A stretch of DNA of 53,880 bases from positions 1-53,880 of IMG/VR virus record IMGVR_UViG_2617270943_000003. One strand, 5' to 3'. Shown here piece after piece: positions 7,998 through 51,687 of this stretch (position 1 is its first letter; the number at the start of each line of letters is the position of its first letter). Origin of the DNA: a virus. Taxonomy: Duplodnaviria; Heunggongvirae; Uroviricota; Caudoviricetes. The position numbers and the translations under genes were made by a program. The notes under the pieces are model-generated. The model worked only from the letters and a program-made list of their open reading frames with translations. It had not been told where the DNA came from and did not search any database.

Positions 7998-8303
7998 CTT
8001 GTTTTTCTCCTATGGTTAGAGTGAACGCGCGGGCGGGCATCCCATTAGCATTAGATAGCAGTGACTGACCGCTGAACAGATCCCGCCGTTGCGTGATATT
8101 TGTTTTTCGCTTCGCAGCGACACCGGGTTTTTAAAGAGCTTAAGGTATGTGCCTTTTTGTGCCTTCCGTTATCTTTTTCCTTGCGTCTTTGCAAGTATGG
8201 CCTTACCTTGTCTGCAAGTTTACAAAATGGAATTTTAAGATCAAGGCTTAAAATACACGTTTTGTGACTTGCATCAAACTTTTTGAGGTTATAGGGTAGC
8301 GAC

Positions 8304-8951
8304 ATGAAAACAAAATGGTATGACTTAGCAAAGCAGCTCATGCGGGCGCAGGGCATGAGTCAGGATTCACTCGCAGATCTCATGGGGATAACTAAAGGCG
8401 GCCTGTCACACTGGCTTAACGGTCGCCGCGAGCCAAATCTTGAAGATATTGCGCGGATTATGCGGGCGCTTGGGCGTCGTCAGTTCACTGTTACACATGA
8501 TGGTATGGTCATTGATGATTCTGTTTCTAATACACTTCAGGCCGCACCGCCGCGTGATTTAGGTAGTTACCCGGTTATTGACTGGAAGGACACAGTAAAC
8601 AATATGGATGACACAAGGCGATCAGCATTACCACACGTTACGACTAGCGTTATTTGTTCAGATGATAGTTACTGGCTGGTTGCCAAAGGTGAATCAATGA
8701 ACGCGCCGCAGGGGTTGAGCATCCCGGCGGGGACGATGATACTTGTTGACCCGCACGCGCCAGCTATTGACGGCAAACTGGTTATAGCCCAGCTTGAGGA
8801 AGGGCAGATACCGACGTTTAAACAGTTGATTATTGATGGAGGTCAAAGGCTTTTACGTTCGCTCAATCCGCTGTATCCGCCAATCCCTATGAATCCAGAA
8901 TCAAAAATTATAGGCGTGGTGGTTGATGCGAAGATCGTAAACCTGCCATAA
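8304..8951 (+). CDS. cI: CI-like prophage repressor (XRE HTH + LexA/S24 peptidase domain)
   Basis: N-terminal HTH (MSQDSLADLMGITKGGLSHWLNGRREP) and C-terminal S24 autopeptidase motifs (AKGESM, catalytic Lys in VVDAKIV). Confidence 0.9.
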   Translation: MKTKWYDLAKQLMRAQGMSQDSLADLMGITKGGLSHWLNGRREPNLEDIARIMRALGRRQFTVTHDGMVIDDSVSNTLQAAPPRDLGSYPVIDWKDTVNNMDDTRRSALPHVTTSVICSDDSYWLVAKGESMNAPQGLSIPAGTMILVDPHAPAIDGKLVIAQLEEGQIPTFKQLIIDGGQRLLRSLNPLYPPIPMNPESKIIGVVVDAKIVNLP

Positions 8952-8956
8952 ACATT

Positions 8957-8981
8957 AGCCGCCGAATGGCGGCTTTTCTTT
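8957..8981 (+). terminator. Rho-independent terminator after repressor gene
   Basis: Hairpin AGCCGCC-GAAT-GGCGGCT followed by TTTCTTT. Confidence 0.55.
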
Positions 8982-9073
8982 GCCTGGAAAACACCAAAAC
9001 GTAAACAGAAAACGTTATTTATTATTTAAATATCAATGGCATATAAAATATTTTAAAAAAGTATACAAAATGG

Positions 9074-9102
9074 ATTGACTCGGTGTTTTACGGGGCGTAT
9101 AT
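9074..9102 (+). promoter_or_regulatory. Sigma70-like promoter (TTGACT-17bp-TATATT) for the rightward early operon
   Basis: Consensus-like -35 and -10 with 17-bp spacing; flanked by the inverted repeat TTGACTCG/CGAGTCAA (9074-9111) and preceded by GTATACAAAATGG. Confidence 0.4.
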
Positions 9103-9451
9103 TGCGAGTCAAAGGAAGGGCGCAGGTAACAAAAGCAACTTCCTGGCACTTTAAAAATCAGGCTTAACACCTTGTCAACCGTGGAGTAACTCCCCGATGG
9201 GGGACCGAAAGCGGCACTGATAACAAGGCGCATGGGGTGTTTAAAGCGTTACATCCCCCACGAAACCGCACGCAAGGCGACGAGTCAGCTTGCTTGGAGT
9301 GAGCAAGGTCACGCCGGGAACGGCGATGATTGCGGGATTAGTTGAAAGATGTTAAGCCGCTCATTAACAATCTGGTCAGCCGCTGGAAGTGCGGCAATTA
9401 ACGAAGATGATTTTTTATTAAGTGTCATCAAGGATATACGGAGATCAGATT

Positions 9452-9742: not shown

Positions 9743-9891
9743 TACAAAATGTAAACATCCGGAGATGACATTATGGTTATTCAGGCGCTTCAATTCAAAC
9801 TGGCAGTAGCGGAAATGCTTCACGATGCCGAAATGTGGAGCGCCGCGAATAAAGCCTTATACATAGTGTTAACAGCACGGGAGATTAAATA

Positions 9892-11482: not shown

Positions 11483-11598
11483 GCATGGTAAAAATTGCGG
11501 CATTAGCCGCCGCCTTCGTTATTGTGGTGATTTATATCACAGCTTCTTTTTATGTCGCCGTTTTTATTGCTGAATTAATTGTTGCATTGTTGGGGTGA
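11479..11598 (+). CDS. Small hydrophobic membrane peptide (39 aa)
   Basis: MSMVKIAALAAAFVIVVIYITASFYVAVFIAELIVALLG; ATGA stop/start overlap with the upstream gene. Confidence 0.3.
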   Translation: MSMVKIAALAAAFVIVVIYITASFYVAVFIAELIVALLG

Positions 11599-13131: not shown

Positions 13132-13188
13132 CCGAGTGATTCCGATCACATAAATATACATTTTGTGTTGTGATCGAATATCCGTTTT

Positions 13189-13449
13189 GTGAGCCAAAAT
13201 CAAAAGGTTTACGGTGCGGAGGAAGCAAAAATGGAACGCGAATTGATGCTTTATTGCGTAGAAGGTGGCGTAGGTCACGATGCCTACGTCGCCGGGAAAG
13301 GCTATCCAGCCGATGAAGTGCTTTCTAATATGCACTTCAGAGAAAATGAAAGCCAGGTGTCTGTGTGGAAACGGTGCGTTGATGGTATTGAAGTTGTAAG
13401 TATCGAACGGTATTTGGGCACGTTTGATTACGGTGTTATTGAGGCTTAA
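13189..13449 (+). CDS. Hypothetical protein
   Basis: 86 aa ORF. Confidence 0.4.
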   Translation: MSQNQKVYGAEEAKMERELMLYCVEGGVGHDAYVAGKGYPADEVLSNMHFRENESQVSVWKRCVDGIEVVSIERYLGTFDYGVIEA

Positions 13450-15432: not shown

Positions 15433-15916
15433 CAGGTTATTAGCCTGCGTTTATGTCGCCGTTTTCGTGATCATCAATCTTATTGTTAACCATTGCGGCC
15501 CGTTGGTAATTCCGATCACCACGGTAGCCGCCGTGTGTGTCAATATGATGATCCGTGACTTCCTGTTATATGACGGCGGCTTGAGATGGTCGTCTACAAC
15601 ATGCGCCGCCGCTGGCGCAATCACTGTACTGATAAATTACGACGCCGGAATGGTGGCGATCGCGTCATTTGTCGCGGTTGTTTCCGGTGCGCTTATTTCT
15701 GGCGGCGTTTACCGGGTTTTGCCTGGTGACTTTGATTCTAAACGTTGGCCTGCAAATATAGCGTCCGCCATAGGTGATGCGTTAATTTTCCCGACGCTAT
15801 CGTTTATGGCATTTATGCCGGAAATATCAGCTATGCAATTCATCTCAAAAATGGCAGCGGTAACGGTGATTACTATCATCATGCGCCGCTATTTCACGTT
15901 TGAGGGTAGAAAATGA
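15413..15916 (+). CDS. Polytopic membrane protein (possibly YhhQ/VUT-family transporter-like)
   Basis: About 5 hydrophobic helices; ATG at 15413 (MERVTIDRLL). Family assignment is tentative, from architecture only. Confidence 0.35.
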   Translation: MERVTIDRLLACVYVAVFVIINLIVNHCGPLVIPITTVAAVCVNMMIRDFLLYDGGLRWSSTTCAAAGAITVLINYDAGMVAIASFVAVVSGALISGGVYRVLPGDFDSKRWPANIASAIGDALIFPTLSFMAFMPEISAMQFISKMAAVTVITIIMRRYFTFEGRK

Positions 15917-16677
15917 GCGGGCTTAGAAATTGGGTGGTGTGGTCGCTGTATGACGGCAGCGGGTACGCTGTTAAAGATTGGGCGGACGCTGGTTATAAAT
16001 GTTATTGCTTCAACTATGACGGCGCTAATCACGGTGATTATGACGGGGTAAAAATAATTCATCCAAATATTGAATATGTTAACGTCTGGATTGATAGCCA
16101 TTTTCTGGTAATGTTCTCCCCTGAATTGTCTGTATATCCAGATCCTGACATTATCCTGGGCTTTCCTCCATGCGACAATCTCGCCGTTTCAGGCGCTCGC
16201 TGGTTCGCTGATAAACGGAAAAAAGACCCTGACTTCCAGGTGAAGGCGGCGCATAACGCAAAACTGGTAGAAAAACTGGCGAATATGCATAACGTGCCGT
16301 GGATGGTGGAAAATCCGGTGGGCGCACTGTCAACGTTATGGCGTAAACCGGATTTTATCTTCAATCCGTGCGCTTACGGTGGCTACCTGCCGGAAGATGA
16401 TAAGCATCCCGCTTTCCCGGAATACATTGCCGACCGCGACGCCTACACGAAGAAAACTTGTATTTGGTGCGGGAATGGATTTAAGCAGCCGCTATTCCGT
16501 CCTGTGCCGATGCCAGATGAATGGGAAGACAGTAAGCAGCACGCGAAGTTAGGCGGAAAATCAAAGCGAACAAAGATGATCCGCTCACTAACGCCGCGTG
16601 GCTTCGCCCGTGCTGTATTCCTGGCTAACGACCGGGCCATCAATCGTACTACGCTCAACCGCGTTTTGCCGGACTGA
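15913..16677 (+). CDS. Putative DNA cytosine-5 methyltransferase-like protein
   Basis: Motif IV-like GFPPCDNLAVSG (PC catalytic dipeptide), motif VI-like MVENPVG, motif I-like SLYDGSGYA; short at 254 aa. Confidence 0.5.
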   Translation: MSGLRNWVVWSLYDGSGYAVKDWADAGYKCYCFNYDGANHGDYDGVKIIHPNIEYVNVWIDSHFLVMFSPELSVYPDPDIILGFPPCDNLAVSGARWFADKRKKDPDFQVKAAHNAKLVEKLANMHNVPWMVENPVGALSTLWRKPDFIFNPCAYGGYLPEDDKHPAFPEYIADRDAYTKKTCIWCGNGFKQPLFRPVPMPDEWEDSKQHAKLGGKSKRTKMIRSLTPRGFARAVFLANDRAINRTTLNRVLPD

Positions 16678-16699
16678 AGTTTACAAAATGGCGTCATTG

Positions 16700-16715
16700 T
16701 GTGATGAATGTCACA
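16700..16715. promoter_or_regulatory. Consensus CRP-like palindrome TGTGA-N6-TCACA
   Basis: TGTGATGAATGTCACA read directly; lies between inverted copies of the TACAAAATGG element upstream of the Cys-rich ORF and ninG. Confidence 0.4.
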
Positions 16716-16836
16716 TAATGGCGCTTTGCACCTTGTTAGCACGTATCCATTTTGTATACTTCAAGCAAACAAAATGCTCTTTAAAAATCCGGCAGCGCTG
16801 AAATGCGTAGAAATCACCTGAAAAGGAGAGAGCATT

Positions 16837-17013
16837 ATGCCTTTTGATAATTACCAATGGCATGACGACTATGAACGAGAAAGCGTTATGCGTGCAATGT
16901 GCAATGTATGCAGCACGAAGAAAGGAGGCTGTAACGAGTGCAACGAATGCTTAGAACATTGGCTAAGGGCCGGACACGCCGAAAGGCTGAACGAAACAGA
17001 GAATCAAAAATAA
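16837..17013 (+). CDS. Small Cys-rich protein (58 aa)
   Basis: MPFDNYQWHDDYERESVMRAMCNVCSTKKGGCNECNECLEHWLRAGHAERL; AAGGAGAG Shine-Dalgarno-like sequence upstream. Confidence 0.35.
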   Translation: MPFDNYQWHDDYERESVMRAMCNVCSTKKGGCNECNECLEHWLRAGHAERLNETENQK

Positions 17014-21718: not shown

Positions 21719-21734
21719 TTTAAGGTGATTGCCT

Positions 21735-22559
21735 ATGAAACATCAAGTAATATCGTTCAGTGGCGGAAGGACTTCTGCTTACATGACTCTAGAGGTATTG
21801 AAAATTCACCATGACGCAGAGGTCATCTTTATGGATACAGGGGCTGAACACCCCAAAACATACGAGTTTATAAAGAATTTAGCCTCACACTTCAACATTA
21901 AAATAACTTGCCTCCGCTGCGTTCCTCCTGCAATTAAATACGGTAAATTCAGTTACGAGATCATTGGTATTGATGATGTAAAATATGACCTTGTTCCGTG
22001 GCGGAGAATCCTGGAACATTATGGTCATCCTTATATCGGCGGGGCATTCTGTACTCACAGGATGAAACAGCTACCTTTTGAAAAGTATTGTGATGAACAC
22101 TATGGCAAAGGCAATTACGAACGCTGGTTAGGTATTAGGGCAGATGAGCCACGCAGACTACACGAAAGGGAGGGTTTTCACTATCTGGCAGATATAAGTG
22201 ACTTTGAGAAGCAGGATATTATTGATTGGTGGTCAGGGCAGCCATTTGATTTAGAGATCCCCGAACATCTTGGTAATTGTGTTTTCTGCATTAAGAAGAG
22301 CAACAAGAAGTTGGCATTGGCAGCAAGAGATGAACCTGAACTATATGACCAGTTTTGTAGTTGCATTGCAGAGCATGATTGCAAGGAAGGTAAGCCGGAA
22401 ATGTATCGCAACAAAATGGCATTGCAGGACGTAATAGCGTTGTTCAGACTGGAGGAAACAGAAGGGATACGCAGCAGCATTATTAACAAGAAAGAGTTTG
22501 GTTCAGGCAGTTGTTCTGAAAGCTGCGAGGCTTTCGCTTGTGATAATAACGTGATCTAA
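21735..22559 (+). CDS. PAPS-reductase-like PP-loop ATP pyrophosphatase family protein
   Basis: PP-loop motif ISFSGGRTSAY near the N-terminus and a C-terminal Cys cluster (CSESCEAFAC); ATG at 21735 with AAGGTGA upstream. Confidence 0.6.
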   Translation: MKHQVISFSGGRTSAYMTLEVLKIHHDAEVIFMDTGAEHPKTYEFIKNLASHFNIKITCLRCVPPAIKYGKFSYEIIGIDDVKYDLVPWRRILEHYGHPYIGGAFCTHRMKQLPFEKYCDEHYGKGNYERWLGIRADEPRRLHEREGFHYLADISDFEKQDIIDWWSGQPFDLEIPEHLGNCVFCIKKSNKKLALAARDEPELYDQFCSCIAEHDCKEGKPEMYRNKMALQDVIALFRLEETEGIRSSIINKKEFGSGSCSESCEAFACDNNVI

Positions 22560-22644
22560 ATCACAAAGTATACAAAATGGCATTGTTCAGGCAGTGCCGT
22601 TTTGTTATATGTAAGCCACGGAAAGACGGAGGGGAGGCAAGAAA

Positions 22645-38146: not shown

Positions 38147-38806
38147 TTAATTCCAGTTGCAAGCGTTTTTTACTTTGTCGATGTGGTTATAAAGACCATC
38201 AATGTTAAACACTGCTTTCTCAATGTCGCCAGCTTCCGGCACTACTTCAATGATAAATTGTTTTTCGTTAACCAGATTTTTAATCATTGGGATGGCTTTT
38301 TTGTCGTTCCATAATCCAAGAGCTTTATAGTTAGTTGACCGCCCCCATTCAGTGGCTACAGCTTTGTGATCGCCGATCCGGTAGTTAATATAAGTAGCGT
38401 CCCCGGCGTCAGTTACACGGTGTGACCATGCTACGAACATTTTTGTTTTATTACCCTGGCAAGCAATTGTTAATACCGGTTTATTCTTATCCTGTGCCTT
38501 CAGTGCCGGGAAGGCATCAAGACTTCCGCTAAAATGATCTGCTTTCACAAAAAGGAACACGTTTTTTGTGTCCTGCATATCATCTTTTCTTTCGACCACA
38601 AGCCACTGTTTACCAGCTTTTTCTTTTGCTAACTGTGCCTCATATGCGGCTTGTTTTGCTTGTTGTTCCGCAAGCCATTTAGCATTTTTCTCAGCCAATG
38701 CTTGTTGTTCTTGAGTGGTCACTATAGGCGCTTTTTCATTATCCTCATTGCAACCAACCAGACCCAATACCGCCGCAATCATTGCCACTTTTGCTAACTG
38801 TTTCAT
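38147..38806 (-). CDS. Lipoprotein (accessory cassette A, gene 1)
   Basis: Signal peptide with lipobox MIAAVLGLVGC, then an Ala/Gln/Lys-rich helical linker and a C-terminal domain. Confidence 0.6.
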   Translation of the reverse strand: MKQLAKVAMIAAVLGLVGCNEDNEKAPIVTTQEQQALAEKNAKWLAEQQAKQAAYEAQLAKEKAGKQWLVVERKDDMQDTKNVFLFVKADHFSGSLDAFPALKAQDKNKPVLTIACQGNKTKMFVAWSHRVTDAGDATYINYRIGDHKAVATEWGRSTNYKALGLWNDKKAIPMIKNLVNEKQFIIEVVPEAGDIEKAVFNIDGLYNHIDKVKNACNWN

Positions 38807-38986
38807 AACCCACCACGCTTAGTTTTTATTTTTAAGTGATTTTAACATTTCTTCAATGAAATCCGCATAGCGTTCATGTTCGTTGGGACGGTAGTTTACG
38901 TTTTTCATTTTCTTGTCCTCTTTTGCTTCCTCCGGTTCATCCGGTCCTTTTAAATCCCTTTACTCTATCCATTTCCTTTAGCCTCT

Positions 38987-39028
38987 TTATACAAAATGTA
39001 TTCGTTGAAGTGAAGCCATTTTGTATAA
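38987..39028. repeat. Perfect 12-bp inverted repeat TTATACAAAATG-N18-CATTTTGTATAA in the divergent promoter region
   Basis: Read directly from the sequence; lies between the minus-strand lipoprotein gene and the tape measure gene. Confidence 0.8.
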
Positions 39029-39066
39029 AATAGAGACATAGATCACATCTTGTATGAGGTTAAATC

Positions 39067-42290: not shown

Positions 42291-42458
42291 TTTGGGCCTC
42301 CTTCGTTGGTACTGCTTTTCTTCTTGCTTTCTATATACATCTTGTTGCGTACTATGTGAAGCCATTTTGTAAACTAGCTATAATCATTGTGATGAAGATC
42401 TCATTTTTCGCGTAGAAGCGCGTAAAGATATATACAAAATGTAACTTATGGGGGTTTT

Positions 42459-42812: not shown

Positions 42813-43009
42813 TGGAGGTTAATATGTATGGTATTTGTGTAGTGGACCGCACTGGCGCTTTTACATTCTTTGACGACTATGAAATTAAAGATCTTACTGT
42901 AAAGGCTGACAATGGCGAGATCTGGTATCTTCATGATGTTGGTGACGGGTATGTCGGATGCAGATCGAGAGAGGGTAGGGAAGTTTTATTCTTGCTTGAT
43001 GGCGTATAA
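42809..43009 (+). CDS. Hypothetical protein
   Basis: 66 aa ORF inserted between M and L homologs. Confidence 0.4.
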   Translation: MMEVNMYGICVVDRTGAFTFFDDYEIKDLTVKADNGEIWYLHDVGDGYVGCRSREGREVLFLLDGV

Positions 43010-43015
43010 ACACGA

Positions 43016-43043
43016 CCCCGCGCGAAGCGGGGTTATTATTATT
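43016..43043 (+). terminator. Rho-independent terminator
   Basis: CCCCGC-GCGAA-GCGGGG hairpin followed by TTATTATTATT. Confidence 0.6.
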
Positions 43044-43458: not shown

Positions 43459-43707
43459 CTATAGGTTATCACGCAGATAATTAACGCCCTTATCAGTGAC
43501 GAATGAATGATTAACCTGGTTTTCATCCGTCATGATGATGAATAACTTTTCCTGTAGGTATTTCGCTTTCGGGTACAGCGTTAAACAGACCTGGTACAGT
43601 ATCCCGCGCTCAATCAGCAAATCAATAAATTCGTGCTCATGATAACCGACGAGGCGGGCGGCCTGTTTCAACGTGTACACATAATCGCCGTGATTGCGCC
43701 ACGCCAT
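43459..43707 (-). CDS. Hypothetical protein, possible HTH (accessory cassette C)
   Basis: 82 aa; segment YTLKQAARLVGYHEHEFIDLLIERGILY resembles a helix-turn-helix. Confidence 0.4.
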   Translation of the reverse strand: MAWRNHGDYVYTLKQAARLVGYHEHEFIDLLIERGILYQVCLTLYPKAKYLQEKLFIIMTDENQVNHSFVTDKGVNYLRDNL

Positions 43708-44234: not shown

Positions 44235-44363
44235 TTCACACCTCCGCGCCATTTTGTTAACTATGCTTCCGTTTGAGTAAAATATACATATTGTAAAAAC
44301 CGCGATCAATCCATTTTGGCATGATTTGGCGTGACACAGATCACAAAATGACAAGGTGAGAAA

Positions 44364-46289: not shown

Positions 46290-49200
46290 ATGAGTAGCGG
46301 CGGCGGCAAAGCCAAAACACCAACATTGCTAAACGATAACCTGTATCATAAACAGTTTTACCGTGTTTTAGATATCCTTAGTGAAGGGCCGATATACGGT
46401 CCAGTAAACCAGACCGCGCCATTAAACAGCGTAATGCTTAATGACACCCCTGTTACTGACACCAACGGGAATACATCCATTCCTGGTATTAGTATAGCGT
46501 GGCGCAACGGTACGGTTGACCAATCGCCAATCAATGGTTTTAACGCTATCGAATCAACCGTTATTGTCAACGCTCAGGTAACTCGCGACACACCAATAAT
46601 CAGGACCGTTTCAGATCCAAACGTAACCCGCGTCAGATTAAATGTTGGCGTTGATGCTCTCGTTCAGTCAGATGATCAGGGCAATCAATACAACACATCC
46701 GTTATGTTAATGGTTGATGTTAAGCCATCATCATCATCAACTTGGACACTGGTTAAGGATATTACCATTGGCCCTGGTAAACAGAGCGGTGAATACTTAG
46801 AAGCTCACATTATCAACGCGCCGGATGAAAAACCGTTTGATATTCGCGTTCGCCGCATAACGGCAGACAGCAACAGCGATCTACTTCGCAATGATACGCG
46901 GTGGAGCAGTTACAGCGAAATCATCGACGATAATTTGTCTTATCCTCACACCGCTGTAGCTGGAGCGGTGATTGATCATGATCAGTACACTGACACGCCT
47001 ACCCGCGCTTATCATCTGCGCGGCCTGATTGTTGACGTGCCGGACAACTACAACCCTGAAGCGCGCACGTATTCCGGTTTATGGCTTGGTGGATTTAAAA
47101 AGGCGTACACCAATAACCCTGCCTGGCTTTTCCGGTATTTGATTAAAAATGAACGCTTTGGCCTTGCACGACAGGCTGGTTATATTGACGTTGATGACGG
47201 CGCTTTATACGTGCTTTCTCAATACTGCGACCAGTTGGTTGATGATGGCTACGGTGGCCTTGAGCCTCGCATGACGCTTAACGCTTACATCACAGAGCAA
47301 ATGAGCGCCCGCGACTTACTGGACAATATCGCCGGGATGTTCAGGGGTATCGCGTTATGGGACGGGCAACGCCTTACCGTGATGATTGATGCACCACAAG
47401 ACCCGATCGCCACCATTACAAATGCAAACGTCGTTGATGGTGCATTCACCCGTTCGAGCCTTGCCCGCGCGGAGTGCTACAACGCCGTGATTGTATCCTG
47501 GACCGATCCGGGTAACGGTTGGGAACAGTCAAAAGAATACGTTTCTGACGATGAACTAATCGCCCGCGACGGCTACAACGAAACCACGCTAGAGGCGTTC
47601 GGGTGCACGTCTCGCGGACAGGCTTATCGCGCTGGTAAATGGCTGATCGAAACAGCAAAACGCGAGCCGTCAAAATTCACGTTTAAAATGGCCCGTGACG
47701 CCATTCACTTTACACCAGGGGATATCATCGAGATCCTCGACAATAACCGCGCTGGCGCTCGCTTAGGCGGTCGTATCGTGGCGAACAATGGCAAAGTGAT
47801 AACGGTCGATAAGGTTGATTCTGAATATATCGCGGCTGGTGACACCATCAGCTTACTTGATAGCGATGGTAAATTTAAAAAACACCAGATCACCGGAGTT
47901 AACGGAAACAATATTACCCTTGCTGCGGCCCCTGCATGGATTCGCAATGGCACTGTTTTTGCTGTATCGACTGAAGCAGCAAAACCCGTTTTATGTAGGA
48001 TCACCAGCGTAGCAGAAACAGAAAATAACAGCGTATACACTATCGAAGCCGCACAGCACGACCCTAACAAACAGGCCGTAGTTGATGAAGGCGCAGTCTT
48101 CGAAATCAACAACGACACGCTTAATCACTTCCGCGTACCTAACATTGAAAATCTGAAGGTGTTAAACGTTGGTTCTGAAACGGTTCAATGCCGCGCAACA
48201 TGGGAAACGCAGACAACAACGCATCGTCTTACCTTTGAAATCCGCGTATATAATGCAGACGGTCGCGTGGTGGCAAGTTATGAAACCACGAATTACCGCT
48301 ATGAATTTTATGGCCTCGACGCAGGCAGCTACACGCTTGGTATTCGCGGTCGTAATGACACTGGCATGAAGGGCGCAGAAAGTATTGTGGATCTGGTTAT
48401 TGGTGCGCCAGCGGCCCCCATCGGCGTTAATTGGGTGCCTGGTGTTTTTCAGGCAACGGTGTACCCGATCAGCAAAACAACCCTAACCACTGATACAGCA
48501 TACGAGTTCTACTACTCCGGGGAAAATCAGATCACAGATCCATCAAAAGTAACCACATCAGCGCAGTTTACCGGGCGCGGGTATCAGTGGACTTTTGGCG
48601 GAATGAACACGGGCCATACCTATTACGTTTATGTCCGTACACGTAACGCTTTTGGTGTGTCAGATTTCGTTGAGGCATCAGGCAAACCAACTGAAAACTT
48701 CGATGAAATTAGCGACTACGTCACCAAAGACGTGATTAATTCAGAACAGTTTAAGGGGATGATTGGCGACATTAAAGATCTTGGCGACCGCGCTGATCTT
48801 ATAGAGAGCGCTACGGATGACCTAAAAACTGCAACTGACGACCTTAAGACCGCAACTGATAATCTTACCAATATCACAAACGGCCTAAGAACTGATACTG
48901 ACGACCTTATTGCAGAAACAGGGTCAATAAAAGTTGACACAGATACGCTTAAAAAAGACACGGAAGATCTTTATAAAAAAGTTCAGGAAAGCGCCGATGA
49001 AATAGGTAAACATGAGGTAAGAATAGACTCGTTAGAGGTATCAAGCGAAAACGTCGGTAATGAACTGGCACAGACAAAAGCAAGCCTACAAAACGCATCG
49101 CTTGCTCTTATTAATAATTCGCTTGCTCAAACTAACACCAGAAGAACGCTTACAGCTCAGATCAAAAATGTAGATTCAGAAACTAAGGCGCAAATAGATC

Positions 49201-51230
49201 GCATTGATAACGTGATTGTCAGTGAAAAAGAAGCAAGAGCGGAGGCAATGGAGACAATTACCGCCGAAATCGACACGATGGATAAAAACATCAAAGGTGA
49301 GATTGCGCGCGTAGATACTGCCATTGCCAATGAGAGCCAGGCAAGGGCTGATGCCATCAGTGAAGTTAGCGCAAACATTGACGCACTTGATAGTAAAACA
49401 GATGCCAGTGTTAATCGTCTTGATCAAGCTATCGCAGATGAGGCCAGCGCACGCGCACAGGCTATCAGCAATGTCAATGCGAGCATGACAAATCTTGATA
49501 ACAAGGTTACAAGCAACGTTTCTAGACTTGATCAGGCAATAGCTGACGAATCAAGCGCAAGAGCAGAAGCCGATGATCAGTTAATAGCAAAAAGCGAAAA
49601 ACTTGATGGTGATCTCGCTATGGCAAGGGCAAGCCTACAAAACGCTTCGCTTGCTCTCATCAATAATACATTGTCTCAGACAAAGACAAGGCGCACTCTC
49701 ACAGCGGAGTTCAAACGCGGACAAAGTGAAACTAAAGCACAAATTGACCGTATTGATAATGTCATTACTGACGAAAAACAGGCAACAGCGGAAGCGTTTG
49801 AAACTATCACAGCAGAAATGAACACGATGGACTCAAACATTAAAGGAGAAATATCACGATTAGATAAAGTGATCGCGACTGAAACGCAAGCAAGATCTGA
49901 AGCTATAAGTAGTGTTAATGCAAGCATAAAGACGCTAGAAAGCGACACTGAAGCCAGCGTTAACCGTCTTGATCAGGCAGTTGCTGACGAGGCCAGCGCC
50001 CGCGCACAAGCTATCAGCGGAGTAAATGCAAGCATCAGCACGCTTGATAGCAAGGTTACAAGCAATGTGACCCGTATCGACAAAGCTATTGCAGATGAGA
50101 CGCAGGCCCGCACAGACGCAATAAGCAACCTTAACTCATCGCTTACCAGTACGATTAATTCGAAAGTATCTGAAGTATCAACAGCACTTTCTACGCATGA
50201 AGCATCAAGCGCGGAAAAATTCAGCCAGATCTCAGCGTCTTTCGAAGCTGTAAACTCAAGCATCACGGAATGGTCGCAGACCATGACAACTGCGGACGAG
50301 GCATTATCAACCAAAATTGATCAGCTTACAGTAACAGTTAACGGGAACACCACGGCGATCGAGACAACATCTAAAGCGTTAACCGACTTCAAAGGTAATG
50401 TTGATGCGTCATGGTCAATCAAGATTGCCACCGACAACAACGGCAGAAAATACGCAACAGGTATGTCGCTTGGCCTGACTGGTAGCGGGACTAACGTTCA
50501 ATCGCAGTGTATTTTCCTCGTTGACCGCTTCGTGTTAATGACTGCGGCAAACGGAACATATCAGACGCCTTTCTATGTTACTAATGGTGCAATGTATGTG
50601 CGCGAAGCGTTTATTAAAGACGCATCAATAGGAACGGCTAAAATTGCAGATGCAGCCATTACTATGGCTAAAATTGTTAATGAAATAAAATCATCAAACT
50701 ATGTTGCTGGTTCTAAAGGTTGGAGGATAACACAAAGCGGATCATCAGAATTTAACGATGTTGTGGTAAGGGGCGAAATCCATGCTAATAGCGGTAAATT
50801 CAAAGGAACTGTAGAAGCTACATCCTTTGTTGGTGATGTCGCATCTACTAACGTTATACCGCAATCATCATTCCCTGGGACAAGTACAAGCGGATCTCGA
50901 TCTGTTACGAAGACGTATAAAGATTCATCATCAAGCTCGCTTTCGAAAACAGTTTTCGTAATGATTCCTTACCATCTTACTTATTATACTTATTCAGGAT
51001 CATCAACAATAAAAGTAACAATTAATATTAATGGCAATAGCAAAACATATAACGTAGTAAGGGCGGCATCATCGCCTCAATTCGGATTTACGGTATCACA
51101 TTGCGTAACTGGGATTACTGCTCAAACAGTTACGATAAAAATAACAGAGGAATACACCAACACCGGAACATCAGCAGAAAGAAGGCCAGGTCTTGCACTT
51201 GTTACAAGAAGCTCAGGATCATGGTCATAA
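46290..51230 (+). CDS. J: Host specificity / central tail fibre protein J
   Basis: N-terminal ~1000 aa collinear with lambda J (FYRVLDILSEGPIYGPVN...YHLRGLIVDVPDNYNP...AFGCTSRGQAYRAGKWLIET); the C-terminal part contains extended coiled-coil repeats. ATG at 46290 with AGGAGAAAAAG upstream. Confidence 0.9.
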   Translation: MSSGGGKAKTPTLLNDNLYHKQFYRVLDILSEGPIYGPVNQTAPLNSVMLNDTPVTDTNGNTSIPGISIAWRNGTVDQSPINGFNAIESTVIVNAQVTRDTPIIRTVSDPNVTRVRLNVGVDALVQSDDQGNQYNTSVMLMVDVKPSSSSTWTLVKDITIGPGKQSGEYLEAHIINAPDEKPFDIRVRRITADSNSDLLRNDTRWSSYSEIIDDNLSYPHTAVAGAVIDHDQYTDTPTRAYHLRGLIVDVPDNYNPEARTYSGLWLGGFKKAYTNNPAWLFRYLIKNERFGLARQAGYIDVDDGALYVLSQYCDQLVDDGYGGLEPRMTLNAYITEQMSARDLLDNIAGMFRGIALWDGQRLTVMIDAPQDPIATITNANVVDGAFTRSSLARAECYNAVIVSWTDPGNGWEQSKEYVSDDELIARDGYNETTLEAFGCTSRGQAYRAGKWLIETAKREPSKFTFKMARDAIHFTPGDIIEILDNNRAGARLGGRIVANNGKVITVDKVDSEYIAAGDTISLLDSDGKFKKHQITGVNGNNITLAAAPAWIRNGTVFAVSTEAAKPVLCRITSVAETENNSVYTIEAAQHDPNKQAVVDEGAVFEINNDTLNHFRVPNIENLKVLNVGSETVQCRATWETQTTTHRLTFEIRVYNADGRVVASYETTNYRYEFYGLDAGSYTLGIRGRNDTGMKGAESIVDLVIGAPAAPIGVNWVPGVFQATVYPISKTTLTTDTAYEFYYSGENQITDPSKVTTSAQFTGRGYQWTFGGMNTGHTYYVYVRTRNAFGVSDFVEASGKPTENFDEISDYVTKDVINSEQFKGMIGDIKDLGDRADLIESATDDLKTATDDLKTATDNLTNITNGLRTDTDDLIAETGSIKVDTDTLKKDTEDLYKKVQESADEIGKHEVRIDSLEVSSENVGNELAQTKASLQNASLALINNSLAQTNTRRTLTAQIKNVDSETKAQIDRIDNVIVSEKEARAEAMETITAEIDTMDKNIKGEIARVDTAIANESQARADAISEVSANIDALDSKTDASVNRLDQAIADEASARAQAISNVNASMTNLDNKVTSNVSRLDQAIADESSARAEADDQLIAKSEKLDGDLAMARASLQNASLALINNTLSQTKTRRTLTAEFKRGQSETKAQIDRIDNVITDEKQATAEAFETITAEMNTMDSNIKGEISRLDKVIATETQARSEAISSVNASIKTLESDTEASVNRLDQAVADEASARAQAISGVNASISTLDSKVTSNVTRIDKAIADETQARTDAISNLNSSLTSTINSKVSEVSTALSTHEASSAEKFSQISASFEAVNSSITEWSQTMTTADEALSTKIDQLTVTVNGNTTAIETTSKALTDFKGNVDASWSIKIATDNNGRKYATGMSLGLTGSGTNVQSQCIFLVDRFVLMTAANGTYQTPFYVTNGAMYVREAFIKDASIGTAKIADAAITMAKIVNEIKSSNYVAGSKGWRITQSGSSEFNDVVVRGEIHANSGKFKGTVEATSFVGDVASTNVIPQSSFPGTSTSGSRSVTKTYKDSSSSSLSKTVFVMIPYHLTYYTYSGSSTIKVTININGNSKTYNVVRAASSPQFGFTVSHCVTGITAQTVTIKITEEYTNTGTSAERRPGLALVTRSSGSWS
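49082..50110 (+). repeat. Intragenic tandem duplication (~549-bp period) within J
   Basis: Two diverged copies starting AAGCCTACAAAACGC at 49082 and 49631, encoding repeated NASLQNASLALINN...AQIDRIDNVI...ARA.AIS.VNAS blocks. Confidence 0.7.
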
Positions 51231-51237
51231 AAAATAA

Positions 51238-51262
51238 CCCCGCTTCGCGCGGGGTTTTCTTT
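51238..51262. terminator. Bidirectional rho-independent terminator between J and the convergent lipoprotein gene
   Basis: CCCCGC-TTCGC-GCGGGG hairpin with A-run upstream and T-run downstream. Confidence 0.65.
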
Positions 51263-51510: not shown

Positions 51511-51687
51511 TTTTTAATCCTCATTCTTGTTAGCTCGTCCGGTTCATCCGGTGGTTTAAATATCCGACAAAACCACATTTCGTATATTGACATAAATCAA
51601 TAAATACATTTTGTATGCGTCAAAAATGTAACACAGATCACAAAATGGTAGAATTATTCCGTTAATTAACATAATGGAGTCATTGCG

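Follow-up and report, generated by a model that had tools for sequence, protein, structure and literature searches.

The closest described relatives of the DNA analysed here are the mEpimmI phages, a group of temperate coliphages reported to match lambdoid phages in frequency within one collection of human faecal isolates (PMC11893012). Three nut sites for their N-like protein, Gp17, have been located, one of which, nutR2, lies downstream of the cytosine-methyltransferase gene; a terminator, t4, was predicted but not demonstrated in the same study (PMC11893012). Our window, the whole stretch of 53,880 nucleotides (53.9 kb; IMG/VR record IMGVR_UViG_2617270943_000003), is a complete-looking genome. 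Because it is 96% identical to Escherichia phage MagusPhagus, about 90% identical to mEp554, mEp013 and mEp010, and 86% identical to mEp021, we identify it as a temperate coliphage of the mEpimmI (mEp021-type) group. The subject of this study is the intergenic stretch 16679-16759, in which a perfect core of the consensus for the cyclic AMP (cAMP) receptor protein CRP stands between inverted copies of a repeated element, together with the further copies of both motifs across the genome. We read this stretch as the predicted terminator t4 plus a predicted promoter for nutR2; it takes up the upstream half of the spacer ahead of the published nutR2 site.

The spacer upstream of nutR2

The original prediction described a CRP core bracketed by inverted element copies in intergenic DNA. 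All of its strings were confirmed in place, namely GTTTACAAAATGG at 16679-16691, TGTGATGAATGTCACA at 16700-16715 and CCATTTTGTATAC at 16747-16759, between a C5-methyltransferase open reading frame (ORF, 15913-16677) and a Cys-rich ORF (16837-17013) that is followed by ninG. While the motifs stood, a 36-nt hairpin, annotated as a terminator in mEp021, and the adjoining nutR2 downstream had been overlooked (Table 1). An alignment of 16674-16818 with 32 distinct homologues displays the layout of the region as a fixed order of columns: the conserved 15-mer, the hairpin, a variable stretch, TTGT at 16733-16736, five to six variable bases, GTATCCATTTTGTATACT, boxA and boxB. The 201-bp region occurs in one copy each in 35 of 5,426 complete E. 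coli genomes.

The stem of the hairpin begins with the last two G of the forward 15-mer copy, and the CRP core makes up its top. Folded as RNA, 16690-16725 gives -22.8 to -23.3 kcal/mol with z-scores of -4.5 to -6.9, and the minus strand folds much more weakly, with -15.9 kcal/mol for a whole 66-nt segment and an interrupted stem. The arms are invariant and the 4-nt loop is hypervariable across the 32 distinct sequences. It has the stable, G+C-containing stem-loop expected of an intrinsic terminator, and the mEp021 annotation places TERM_4 at the homologous position with a score of 79. The 3' tail reads only UUUG in the window, where the terminator scan made no call, and UUUU(U) in most relatives. 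No compensatory change was found in the stem among the 32 sequences, 18 of which carry a C.A mismatch within it, and an apparent double change in the stem of one relative (L036) proved not to be compensatory. Termination at 16690-16725 is a prediction.

Downstream of the hairpin, the TTGT of the -35 hexamer is invariant between variable columns and GTATCCATTTTGTATACT around the -10 hexamer is invariant as well. This pattern of conserved, variable and conserved columns is what a promoter footprint looks like, and TTGTTA-16-TATACT has the form of a sigma-70 promoter, with hexamers 16-18 bp apart that are conserved around a variable spacer. Its -10 is overlapped by the right-hand inverted copy of the element. 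From these sequence features we infer promoter activity, with a start expected near 16767, about 8 nt before boxA. Reading TTTTG-TAWACT as an extended -10 was rejected since the TG is one base too close to be canonical.

The nutR2 site itself lies just outside 16679-16759, at its published position, and consists of a boxA like CGCTCTTTAA and, behind it, a small hairpin whose loop is rich in purines. The closing pair of its boxB covaries as GU (24 sequences), CG (4) and AU (4), and the site is mirrored by nutL at 8128-8139 on the minus strand. Homology to TERM_4, the promoter footprint and a predicted start immediately upstream of boxA are our reasons for reading the stretch as t4 with a nutR2 promoter. 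A small ORF across the region (gene 44 in the mEp554 annotation) was considered and dismissed, as it has no ribosome-binding site and suffers 1-nt indels in two relatives (L012 and L027). Searches for known RNA families and tRNAs found none.

Table 1. Features of the nutR2 spacer and of the other predicted promoter regions in the window
Feature	Position	Strand	Remarks
Forward 15-mer copy AAGTTTACAAAATGG	16677-16691	+	Invariant or near-invariant in 32 distinct relatives
36-nt hairpin, 16-bp stem, 4-nt loop	16690-16725	+	Predicted terminator t4 (TERM_4) of mEp021
CRP consensus core TGTGA-N6-TCACA, at the hairpin tip	16700-16715		0 mismatches; centre 16707.5
Predicted sigma-70 promoter TTGTTA-16-TATACT	16733-16760	+	Promoter scan 9/12 and footprint
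Reverse 15-mer copy (AAGTATACAAAATGG on the minus strand)	16747-16761	-	3' spacer and -10 of the 16733-16760 promoter
boxA of nutR2, TGCTCTTTAAAAA	16775-16787	+	Invariant in 32 relatives
boxB of nutR2, 4-bp stem around UGAAAU	16795-16808	+	Covarying closing pair
pL region: 15-mer (8216-8230), predicted pL TTGATC-16-TAAACT (8244 to 8217), dyad TGTGACTTGCATCAAA (8263-8278)	8216-8278	-	
pR: 15-mer, then TTGACT-17-TATATT	9059-9103	+	Scan 10/12, the only match in 8100-9200
Dyad AGTGATTCCGATCACA (13135-13150), TTGTGA at 13168, then two CATTTTGT-type copies	13135-13195	+	Weak -10
62-bp cassette: dyad (22550-22565), 15-mer (22566-22580), hairpin GGCATTG-UUCAGG-CAGTGCC (22579-22598)	22550-22612		
62-bp cassette, further parts: inverted copy CCGTTTTGTTATAT, predicted promoter TTGTTC-16-TTATAT (22583-22610)	22550-22612		
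Predicted back-to-back promoters: leftward TTCACT-17-TATAAA (39014 to 38986), rightward TTCGTT-17-TATAAA (39001-39029)	38986-39047		Half-conserved dyad AGAGACATAGATCACA (39032-39047)
Predicted leftward TTCACA-17-TATATA (42360 to 42332), 15-mer (42362-42376, minus) upstream; rightward TATAAT (42379-42384)	42332-42403		
Predicted leftward pR paralogue TTGATC-17-TATATT (44309 to 44281), dyad CGTGACACAGATCACA (44330-44345), 17-mer (44334-44350)	44281-44350		Scan 9/12
Inverted element (51606-51615, minus), dyad TGTAACACAGATCACA (51627-51642), extended -10 TGGTAGAAT (51646-51654)	51606-51654		

Two dispersed motifs at predicted promoters

The repeated element is the 10-mer TACAAAATGG, which forms the core of the 15-mer AAGTWTACAAAATGG. 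At one mismatch or fewer the 10-mer has 23 matches in the window (5.5 +/- 2.2 expected; none of 100 shuffles reached 23), and the 15-mer is present in five exact copies, with eight matches at two mismatches or fewer against 0.44 expected. The commonest 9-mer of the window is ACAAAATGG, and 20 aligned copies yield the asymmetric motif aagtWTACAAAATGGm. The dyad TGTGA-N6-TCACA was found nine times at one mismatch or fewer (1.74 +/- 1.32 expected; again no shuffle out of 100 reached the count). All five CRP-like sites of the original prediction were recovered by this search, which added those at 13135 and 22550. The seven intergenic dyads are at 8263, 13135, 16700, 22550, 42388, 44330 and 51627; only 16700 has no mismatch and the other six have one each, while an eighth intergenic site, at 39032, has two. 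The matches in coding sequence, at 11526 and 28099, look like chance occurrences. A 17-mer that had been reported to be common to the sites upstream of the L and tail-fibre genes is exact at 44334-44350 and 51631-51647.

The mEp021 genome, of which 12.4% is non-coding, served as an independent annotation for the location of the motifs. There, 16 of 21 element matches (P = 3e-11) and five of seven CRP-like matches (P = 5e-4) are intergenic. Across 82 related IMG/VR loci the element and the dyad each occur 1.1-2.8 times per 10 kb, as in the window, whereas T1-like and lambdoid loci fetched with the same queries contain 0.1-0.5 of either per 10 kb, making the motifs 5-25 times rarer. Both motifs are largely intergenic and specific to the mEpimmI (mEp021) group, and the shuffles, the intergenic bias and the group specificity together rule out a chance origin for them.

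The element occupies two places in predicted promoters. In the first orientation, ACAAAATGG is followed by a single base, a -35, 17 bp and a -10 (9075, 44309, 39014 and 42360), so that the 10-mer is centred at -41.5 and ACAAAATGG spans -45 to -37 in pR and three paralogues. In the second orientation CCATTTTG runs into TAWACT, TATAAA or a similar hexamer and supplies the 3' spacer and the -10, a role it has at predicted pL (8244-8217), 16733-16760, 22583-22610 and 39001-39029. Inverted copies at 22.57 and 39.0 kb lie 26 bp apart from centre to centre, which is the distance between the two promoter positions; each pair therefore amounts to two predicted back-to-back promoters. Copies mark pL, pR and every junction at which a leftward accessory cassette interrupts the rightward tail genes. 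Apart from the 15-mer, the pL and pR control regions have no strong similarity to each other. At 44309-44281, the paralogue of pR is 71% identical to it, including the initial transcribed region, and heads an operon that runs leftward amid tail genes and codes for an ANT (KilAC) antirepressor (43459-43707, minus strand). The best-supported reading of the element is a lineage-specific family of related sigma-70 promoters that share the 15-mer, their activity being predicted from sequence. In a comparison by hand with the consensus sites of IHF, Fis, DnaA, LexA, TyrR, CpxR, OmpR, sigma-32 and sigma-S, no convincing match emerged. Nor was co-variation of the element seen between sites of one genome, as genomes with TACGAAATGG variants at 22.5 kb can have TACAAAATGG at 16.7 kb.

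Two further observations concern the element and pR. Element copies at 9743-9760 and 42433-42450 read ACAAAATGTAA, which contains an ATG with an immediate stop codon; the ribosome-binding site of the following rightward gene lies 8-12 nt further on. A perfect 8-bp inverted repeat brackets pR (9075-9111), TTGACTCG forming the left arm at the -35 and CGAGTCAA the right arm in the start region; this right arm varies to some extent among relatives.

The dyads are conserved in position across about 30 distinct related genomes. At 16700 the core is exact in 14 of 34 relatives and has one mismatch (CGTGA) in the other 20. At the sites designated D, G and H the pentamers are conserved at 0.92-1.00 compared with 0.74-0.81 for the central 6 bp, as expected for a site bound by a dimer, and in relatives the extended half-site AAATGTGATCT, a complete consensus half of a CRP site, appears at 22.5 and 39.0 kb. 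An RNA hairpin was rejected as the property common to the dyads: of the eight, only the 16.7 kb copy folds stably, and the shared property is thus a DNA dyad. Since no Crp-family protein or domain was found among the 20 phage ORFs scanned, CRP of the host is the natural candidate for its binder.

A CRP site spans 22 bp around the TGTGA-N6-TCACA core. Class I CRP sites are centred near -61.5, -71.5, -82.5 or -92.5 and recur at intervals of one helical turn, and in lac P1 the dyad centre lies 25.5 bp from the -35 (recomputed by hand). Measured to the first base of the nearest predicted -35 in a suitable orientation, the same 25.5 bp was found at 13135, 16700, 22550 and, for the leftward promoter, 39032, with 26.5 bp at 8263, 28.5 bp at 44330 and 35.5 bp, again leftward, at 42388. 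The 17-18 bases that separate dyad and -35 differ in sequence from site to site. In a strict test, which demanded at least 4/6 matches in the -35, at least 4/6 in the -10 with A at its second position, a spacer of 16-18 and a distance of 24.5-28.5 or 35.5-37.5, five of the eight intergenic sites passed, compared with about 10% of shuffled flanks per site; both coding-region matches failed.

These results bear on the suggestion that CRP or a relative controls internal promoters of the phage, including those of the L and tail-fibre genes. The enriched, conserved, intergenic dyads and their class I spacing favour the general part of this suggestion, with CRP as a predicted regulator; for the tail genes the suggestion is not supported. 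The predicted promoters with class I geometry are pL, the nutR2 promoter, two more rightward ones at 22.6 and 13.2 kb and those of three leftward accessory cassettes. The predicted start of the rightward tail-gene promoter lies under the dyad at both 39.0 and 42.4 kb, a repressing position; at 44.3 kb no promoter follows the dyad, and at 51.6 kb the dyad is within an extended -10 promoter 34 nt before the tail-fibre gene.

Based on these observations, the reading we favour joins t4 and the nutR2 promoter, the 15-mer promoter family, and class I dyads served by host CRP, and we rate its chances as about even. The t4 hairpin, on plus-strand RNA, would stop RNA polymerase that has not been modified by Gp17, and the 16733 promoter (-35 at 16733-16738, -10 at 16755-16760) would restart transcription just ahead of boxA. 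The new transcript would at once carry nutR2 and could be made proficient for antitermination before it reaches ninG, rusA and Q. The A-tract of the 15-mer, centred at -41.5 and bordering the -35 on its upstream side, would seat the C-terminal domain of the RNA polymerase alpha subunit (alpha-CTD) or an activator. The dyads would act as upstream activator sites in class I geometry, most likely for host cAMP-CRP, which would raise transcription from pL, from the nutR2 promoter and from leftward accessory operons, the antirepressor operon among them. A dimer bound in this way would, in three cassettes, also sit over the start of the opposite promoter. Promoter activity, termination, and binding by CRP and alpha-CTD are all predicted in this account.

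A bolder version of this reading, which we regard as tentative and on the doubtful side, sees a lineage of temperate coliphages of the gut that has wired host cAMP-CRP, through lac-like class I sites in back-to-back cassettes, into at least six of its own promoters (pL, the nutR2 promoter feeding Q, and several accessory operons including that of the antirepressor). A single CRP dimer would switch on the leftward promoter of a cassette while sitting on the start of the opposite tail-gene promoter, and the 15-mer would serve one promoter as alpha-CTD site and its partner as -10. Lytic development and induction would then be biased directly by carbon status.

Several points weigh against the favoured reading. 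Conservation of the 15-mer is tighter than an A-tract or a -10 would call for, which points to a sequence-specific protein binder. The terminator scan did not call the t4 hairpin in the window, where the U-tract is short. At 16.7 kb the palindrome is kept over 16 bp per arm, beyond the needs of CRP, so that the hairpin alone could explain its conservation. Several dyads keep only the GATCACA half, the other half being TGCAA, AGAGA or CCCGC in many relatives. The distance windows of the strict test were taken from the CRP literature but fixed only after the pattern had been seen, the site at 44.3 kb is off phase by 3 bp, and 51627 has no class I partner promoter even when the search includes the leftward direction. 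The best promoter, pR, has no dyad. Among the promoters, pL scores 8/12, those at 22.6 and 13.2 kb do not pass the strict test, the -10 hexamers TATAAA and TATATA have no T at the end, and all except pR, 16733 and 44309 are our own reading of the sequence. Finally, module duplication could keep the spacings constant without function.

Other readings of the motifs

The first of the alternatives, which we consider unlikely, is that one or both motifs are operators of phage regulators, the 15-mer being bound by the immunity repressor Rep (CI-like) or another phage protein at many dispersed promoters, in the manner of P1 C1 operators or mycobacteriophage L5 stoperators, and the palindromes by the small HTH_36 protein, acting like Cro, which is the first protein encoded in the pL operon. 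As the sole strong similarity between pL and pR, both of which need control by one repressor, the 15-mer would suit such a role; it is specific to a phage group with a single immunity, at pL it overlaps the -10, at pR and the antirepressor promoter it adjoins the -35, and its conservation exceeds what a -10 or an A-tract needs. The repressor gene has a -10-like TAAAAT (8249-8254) ahead of it, closely followed by the 8263 palindrome, which covers the start region predicted for that gene's promoter, as OR3 does for Cro. Palindromes also cover a predicted start in three cassettes: that of the leftward promoter at 22.5 kb and those of the rightward ones at 39.0 kb and at 42.4 kb (dyad 42388-42403). 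However, Rep combines HTH_3 with Peptidase_S24, a type that binds dyads as a dimer, whereas the 15-mer has no dyad symmetry, and it occurs in both orientations at two promoter positions (-41.5 and -15.5). A dyad common to the pL and pR regions was looked for as a Rep operator and not found. The single orientation relative to transcription that characterises stoperators is absent, both orientations being present within the same intergenic region. The absence of a palindrome at pR argues that the palindromes are not the immunity operator. Moreover, they match the CRP consensus beyond the pentamers (AAATGTGATCT in relatives), which for a phage protein would be coincidence.

We judge it more improbable still that the 16700 palindrome is only the stem of t4, its CRP match being incidental, and that the other sites are by-products of a GATCACA variant of the element (TCACAAAATGG) with no activator role. 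Conservation of both arms over 16 bp with a free loop, a fold stable on the plus strand only, and the terminator annotated there in mEp021 all fit such a stem, and three of the sites (39.0, 44.3 and 51.6 kb) have a weak left half and a right half-site that is joined to, or stands in place of, the beginning of the element. Against this, the seven other dyads do not fold and yet are conserved and intergenic, the hairpin has no compensatory changes and the C.A mismatch in more than half of its sequences, and the distance from dyad centre to -35 stays the same despite differing intervening sequence, which is non-random.

A role at the RNA level, in which the forward copy pairs with the reverse copy, or the reverse copy with ACAAAATG (16769-16776), and read-through transcripts fold in front of boxA as a processing site or nut modulator, seems very improbable: a 181-nt fold of -61.6 kcal/mol (z -5.3) does pair the two copies, and RNAalifold predicts a 16748/16769 helix with only pair-preserving A-to-G changes, but no pair has a two-sided change, two sequences (L029 and L030) have single changes that disrupt the outer helix, the context of most other copies is either untranscribed or oppositely oriented, and a transcript from the predicted 16733 promoter would lack the 5' partner.

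Accessory cassettes and comparison with known systems

The 22550-22612 module has unrelated mosaic flanks in different relatives and is absent from mEp021; in the window it follows a PAPS-reductase-like accessory gene (21729-22559). In another of the leftward cassettes marked by the element, between the tail-tube and tape-measure genes, the accessory gene at 38147-38806 (minus strand) matches the VasI family of type VI secretion (Pfam E = 2e-14). At 42403-42436, upstream of a minor tail gene, and at 29617-29650, between the terminase and portal genes, 34-mers that are 85% identical surround a boxB-like hairpin, CGCG-TAGAAG-CGCG (42409-42422 and 29623-29636). The 42.4 kb copy is nearly invariant in 39 relatives, and there is no boxA beside the 34-mer. 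The GC-rich hairpins at 43008-43040 and 51230-51262, which have flanking A- and T-runs, show 88% complementarity between them and probably terminate transcription from both sides at the boundaries of rightward tail genes and leftward cassettes. A 300-nt direct repeat of 69% identity (49043-49342 and 49592-49891) lies inside the J-like host-specificity gene.

The T1-like virulent phages (FSL SP-126, CF1 and U136B; loci L044-L052) share only the C5-methyltransferase with the window phage. They possess a dispersed 22-mer of their own, GTTTTAACAAAAAGTGCTATTT, directly after GC-rich hairpins in 9-15 copies per 20 kb (L044: 1139, 3604, 5442, 7082 and further sites), with a reversed, -10-like ATTATGCC on the other side of the hairpin. 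These units look like terminator/promoter cassettes.

The position of nutR2 and t4 is already published, and the parts described here are all of known kinds; the nutR2 promoter, the 15-mer family and the lac-like dyads are unmentioned in the literature we searched. The 2025 description of the group contains no mention of repeats or the 15-mer, of CRP or CRP-like dyads, or of a promoter between t4 and nutR2 (PMC11893012). Our literature searches on this phage group returned no data on CRP binding or on crp or cya dependence, and an exact-string search for the repeated element returned only unrelated primers.

If the favoured reading is true, it supplies a testable promoter map for a group in which promoters and operators had been unmapped, with pL and pR, one promoter for nutR2 alone, and those of the accessory cassettes. 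It would explain the third nut site, 7.6 kb from nutR1, as one that has its own promoter. The catabolite status of the host could reach the lysis-lysogeny circuitry directly, including the antirepressor operon. As small portable regulatory parts, the compact bidirectional cassettes could be of use. Should CRP not bind, the 15-mer and the dyads would still mark binding sites of phage regulators.

The t4 and nutR2 pair of the window matches that of mEp021, with the same position after the methyltransferase gene and before ninF, ninG, rusA and Q, and conserved boxA and boxB. Its predicted terminator t4 is the analogue of the lambda nin-region terminators with N antitermination. We know of no nut site or promoter in lambda at the place that corresponds to nutR2.

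The 15-mer resembles the P1 C1 operators and L5 stoperators in being a non-palindromic motif of 13-17 bp that is present at least a dozen times in the short intergenic regions of a temperate phage genome, early promoters included. Unlike them it has no orientation bias, the phage repressor is a CI/LexA-type dimer, and the motif contains a -10-like hexamer and holds fixed promoter positions; protein binding to it is putative. The placement of ACAAAATGG at -45 to -37 is similar to that of the proximal subsite of an UP element, an A-tract from -46 to -38. In contrast to an UP element, however, the phage motif is an exact 10-15-mer with G/C ends, far stricter, and is used in reverse as spacer and -10.

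Similar to the morons of HK97-like and lambdoid phages, the motifs edge oppositely transcribed accessory cassettes among tail genes, and the 22.55 kb module travels as a 62-bp unit. Classical morons have unrelated promoters, whereas these cassettes repeat one conserved promoter design with a common upstream dyad.

The dyads compare most directly with class I CRP promoters such as lac P1. Common to both are the exact dyad at 16700, the 25.5-bp spacing, one site a helical turn further out, and an A-tract about 19-20 bp from the dyad centre, which is where alpha-CTD binds relative to a CRP dyad. The phage arrangement differs in that it belongs to a phage genome and involves at least seven promoters, several with one good half-site, and in that the 16.7 kb site is inside a terminator hairpin and three cassettes have the divergent start covered by the dyad. 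With CRP binding as a prediction, the phage would combine the geometry of lac P1 with a terminator and a nut site at 16.7 kb.

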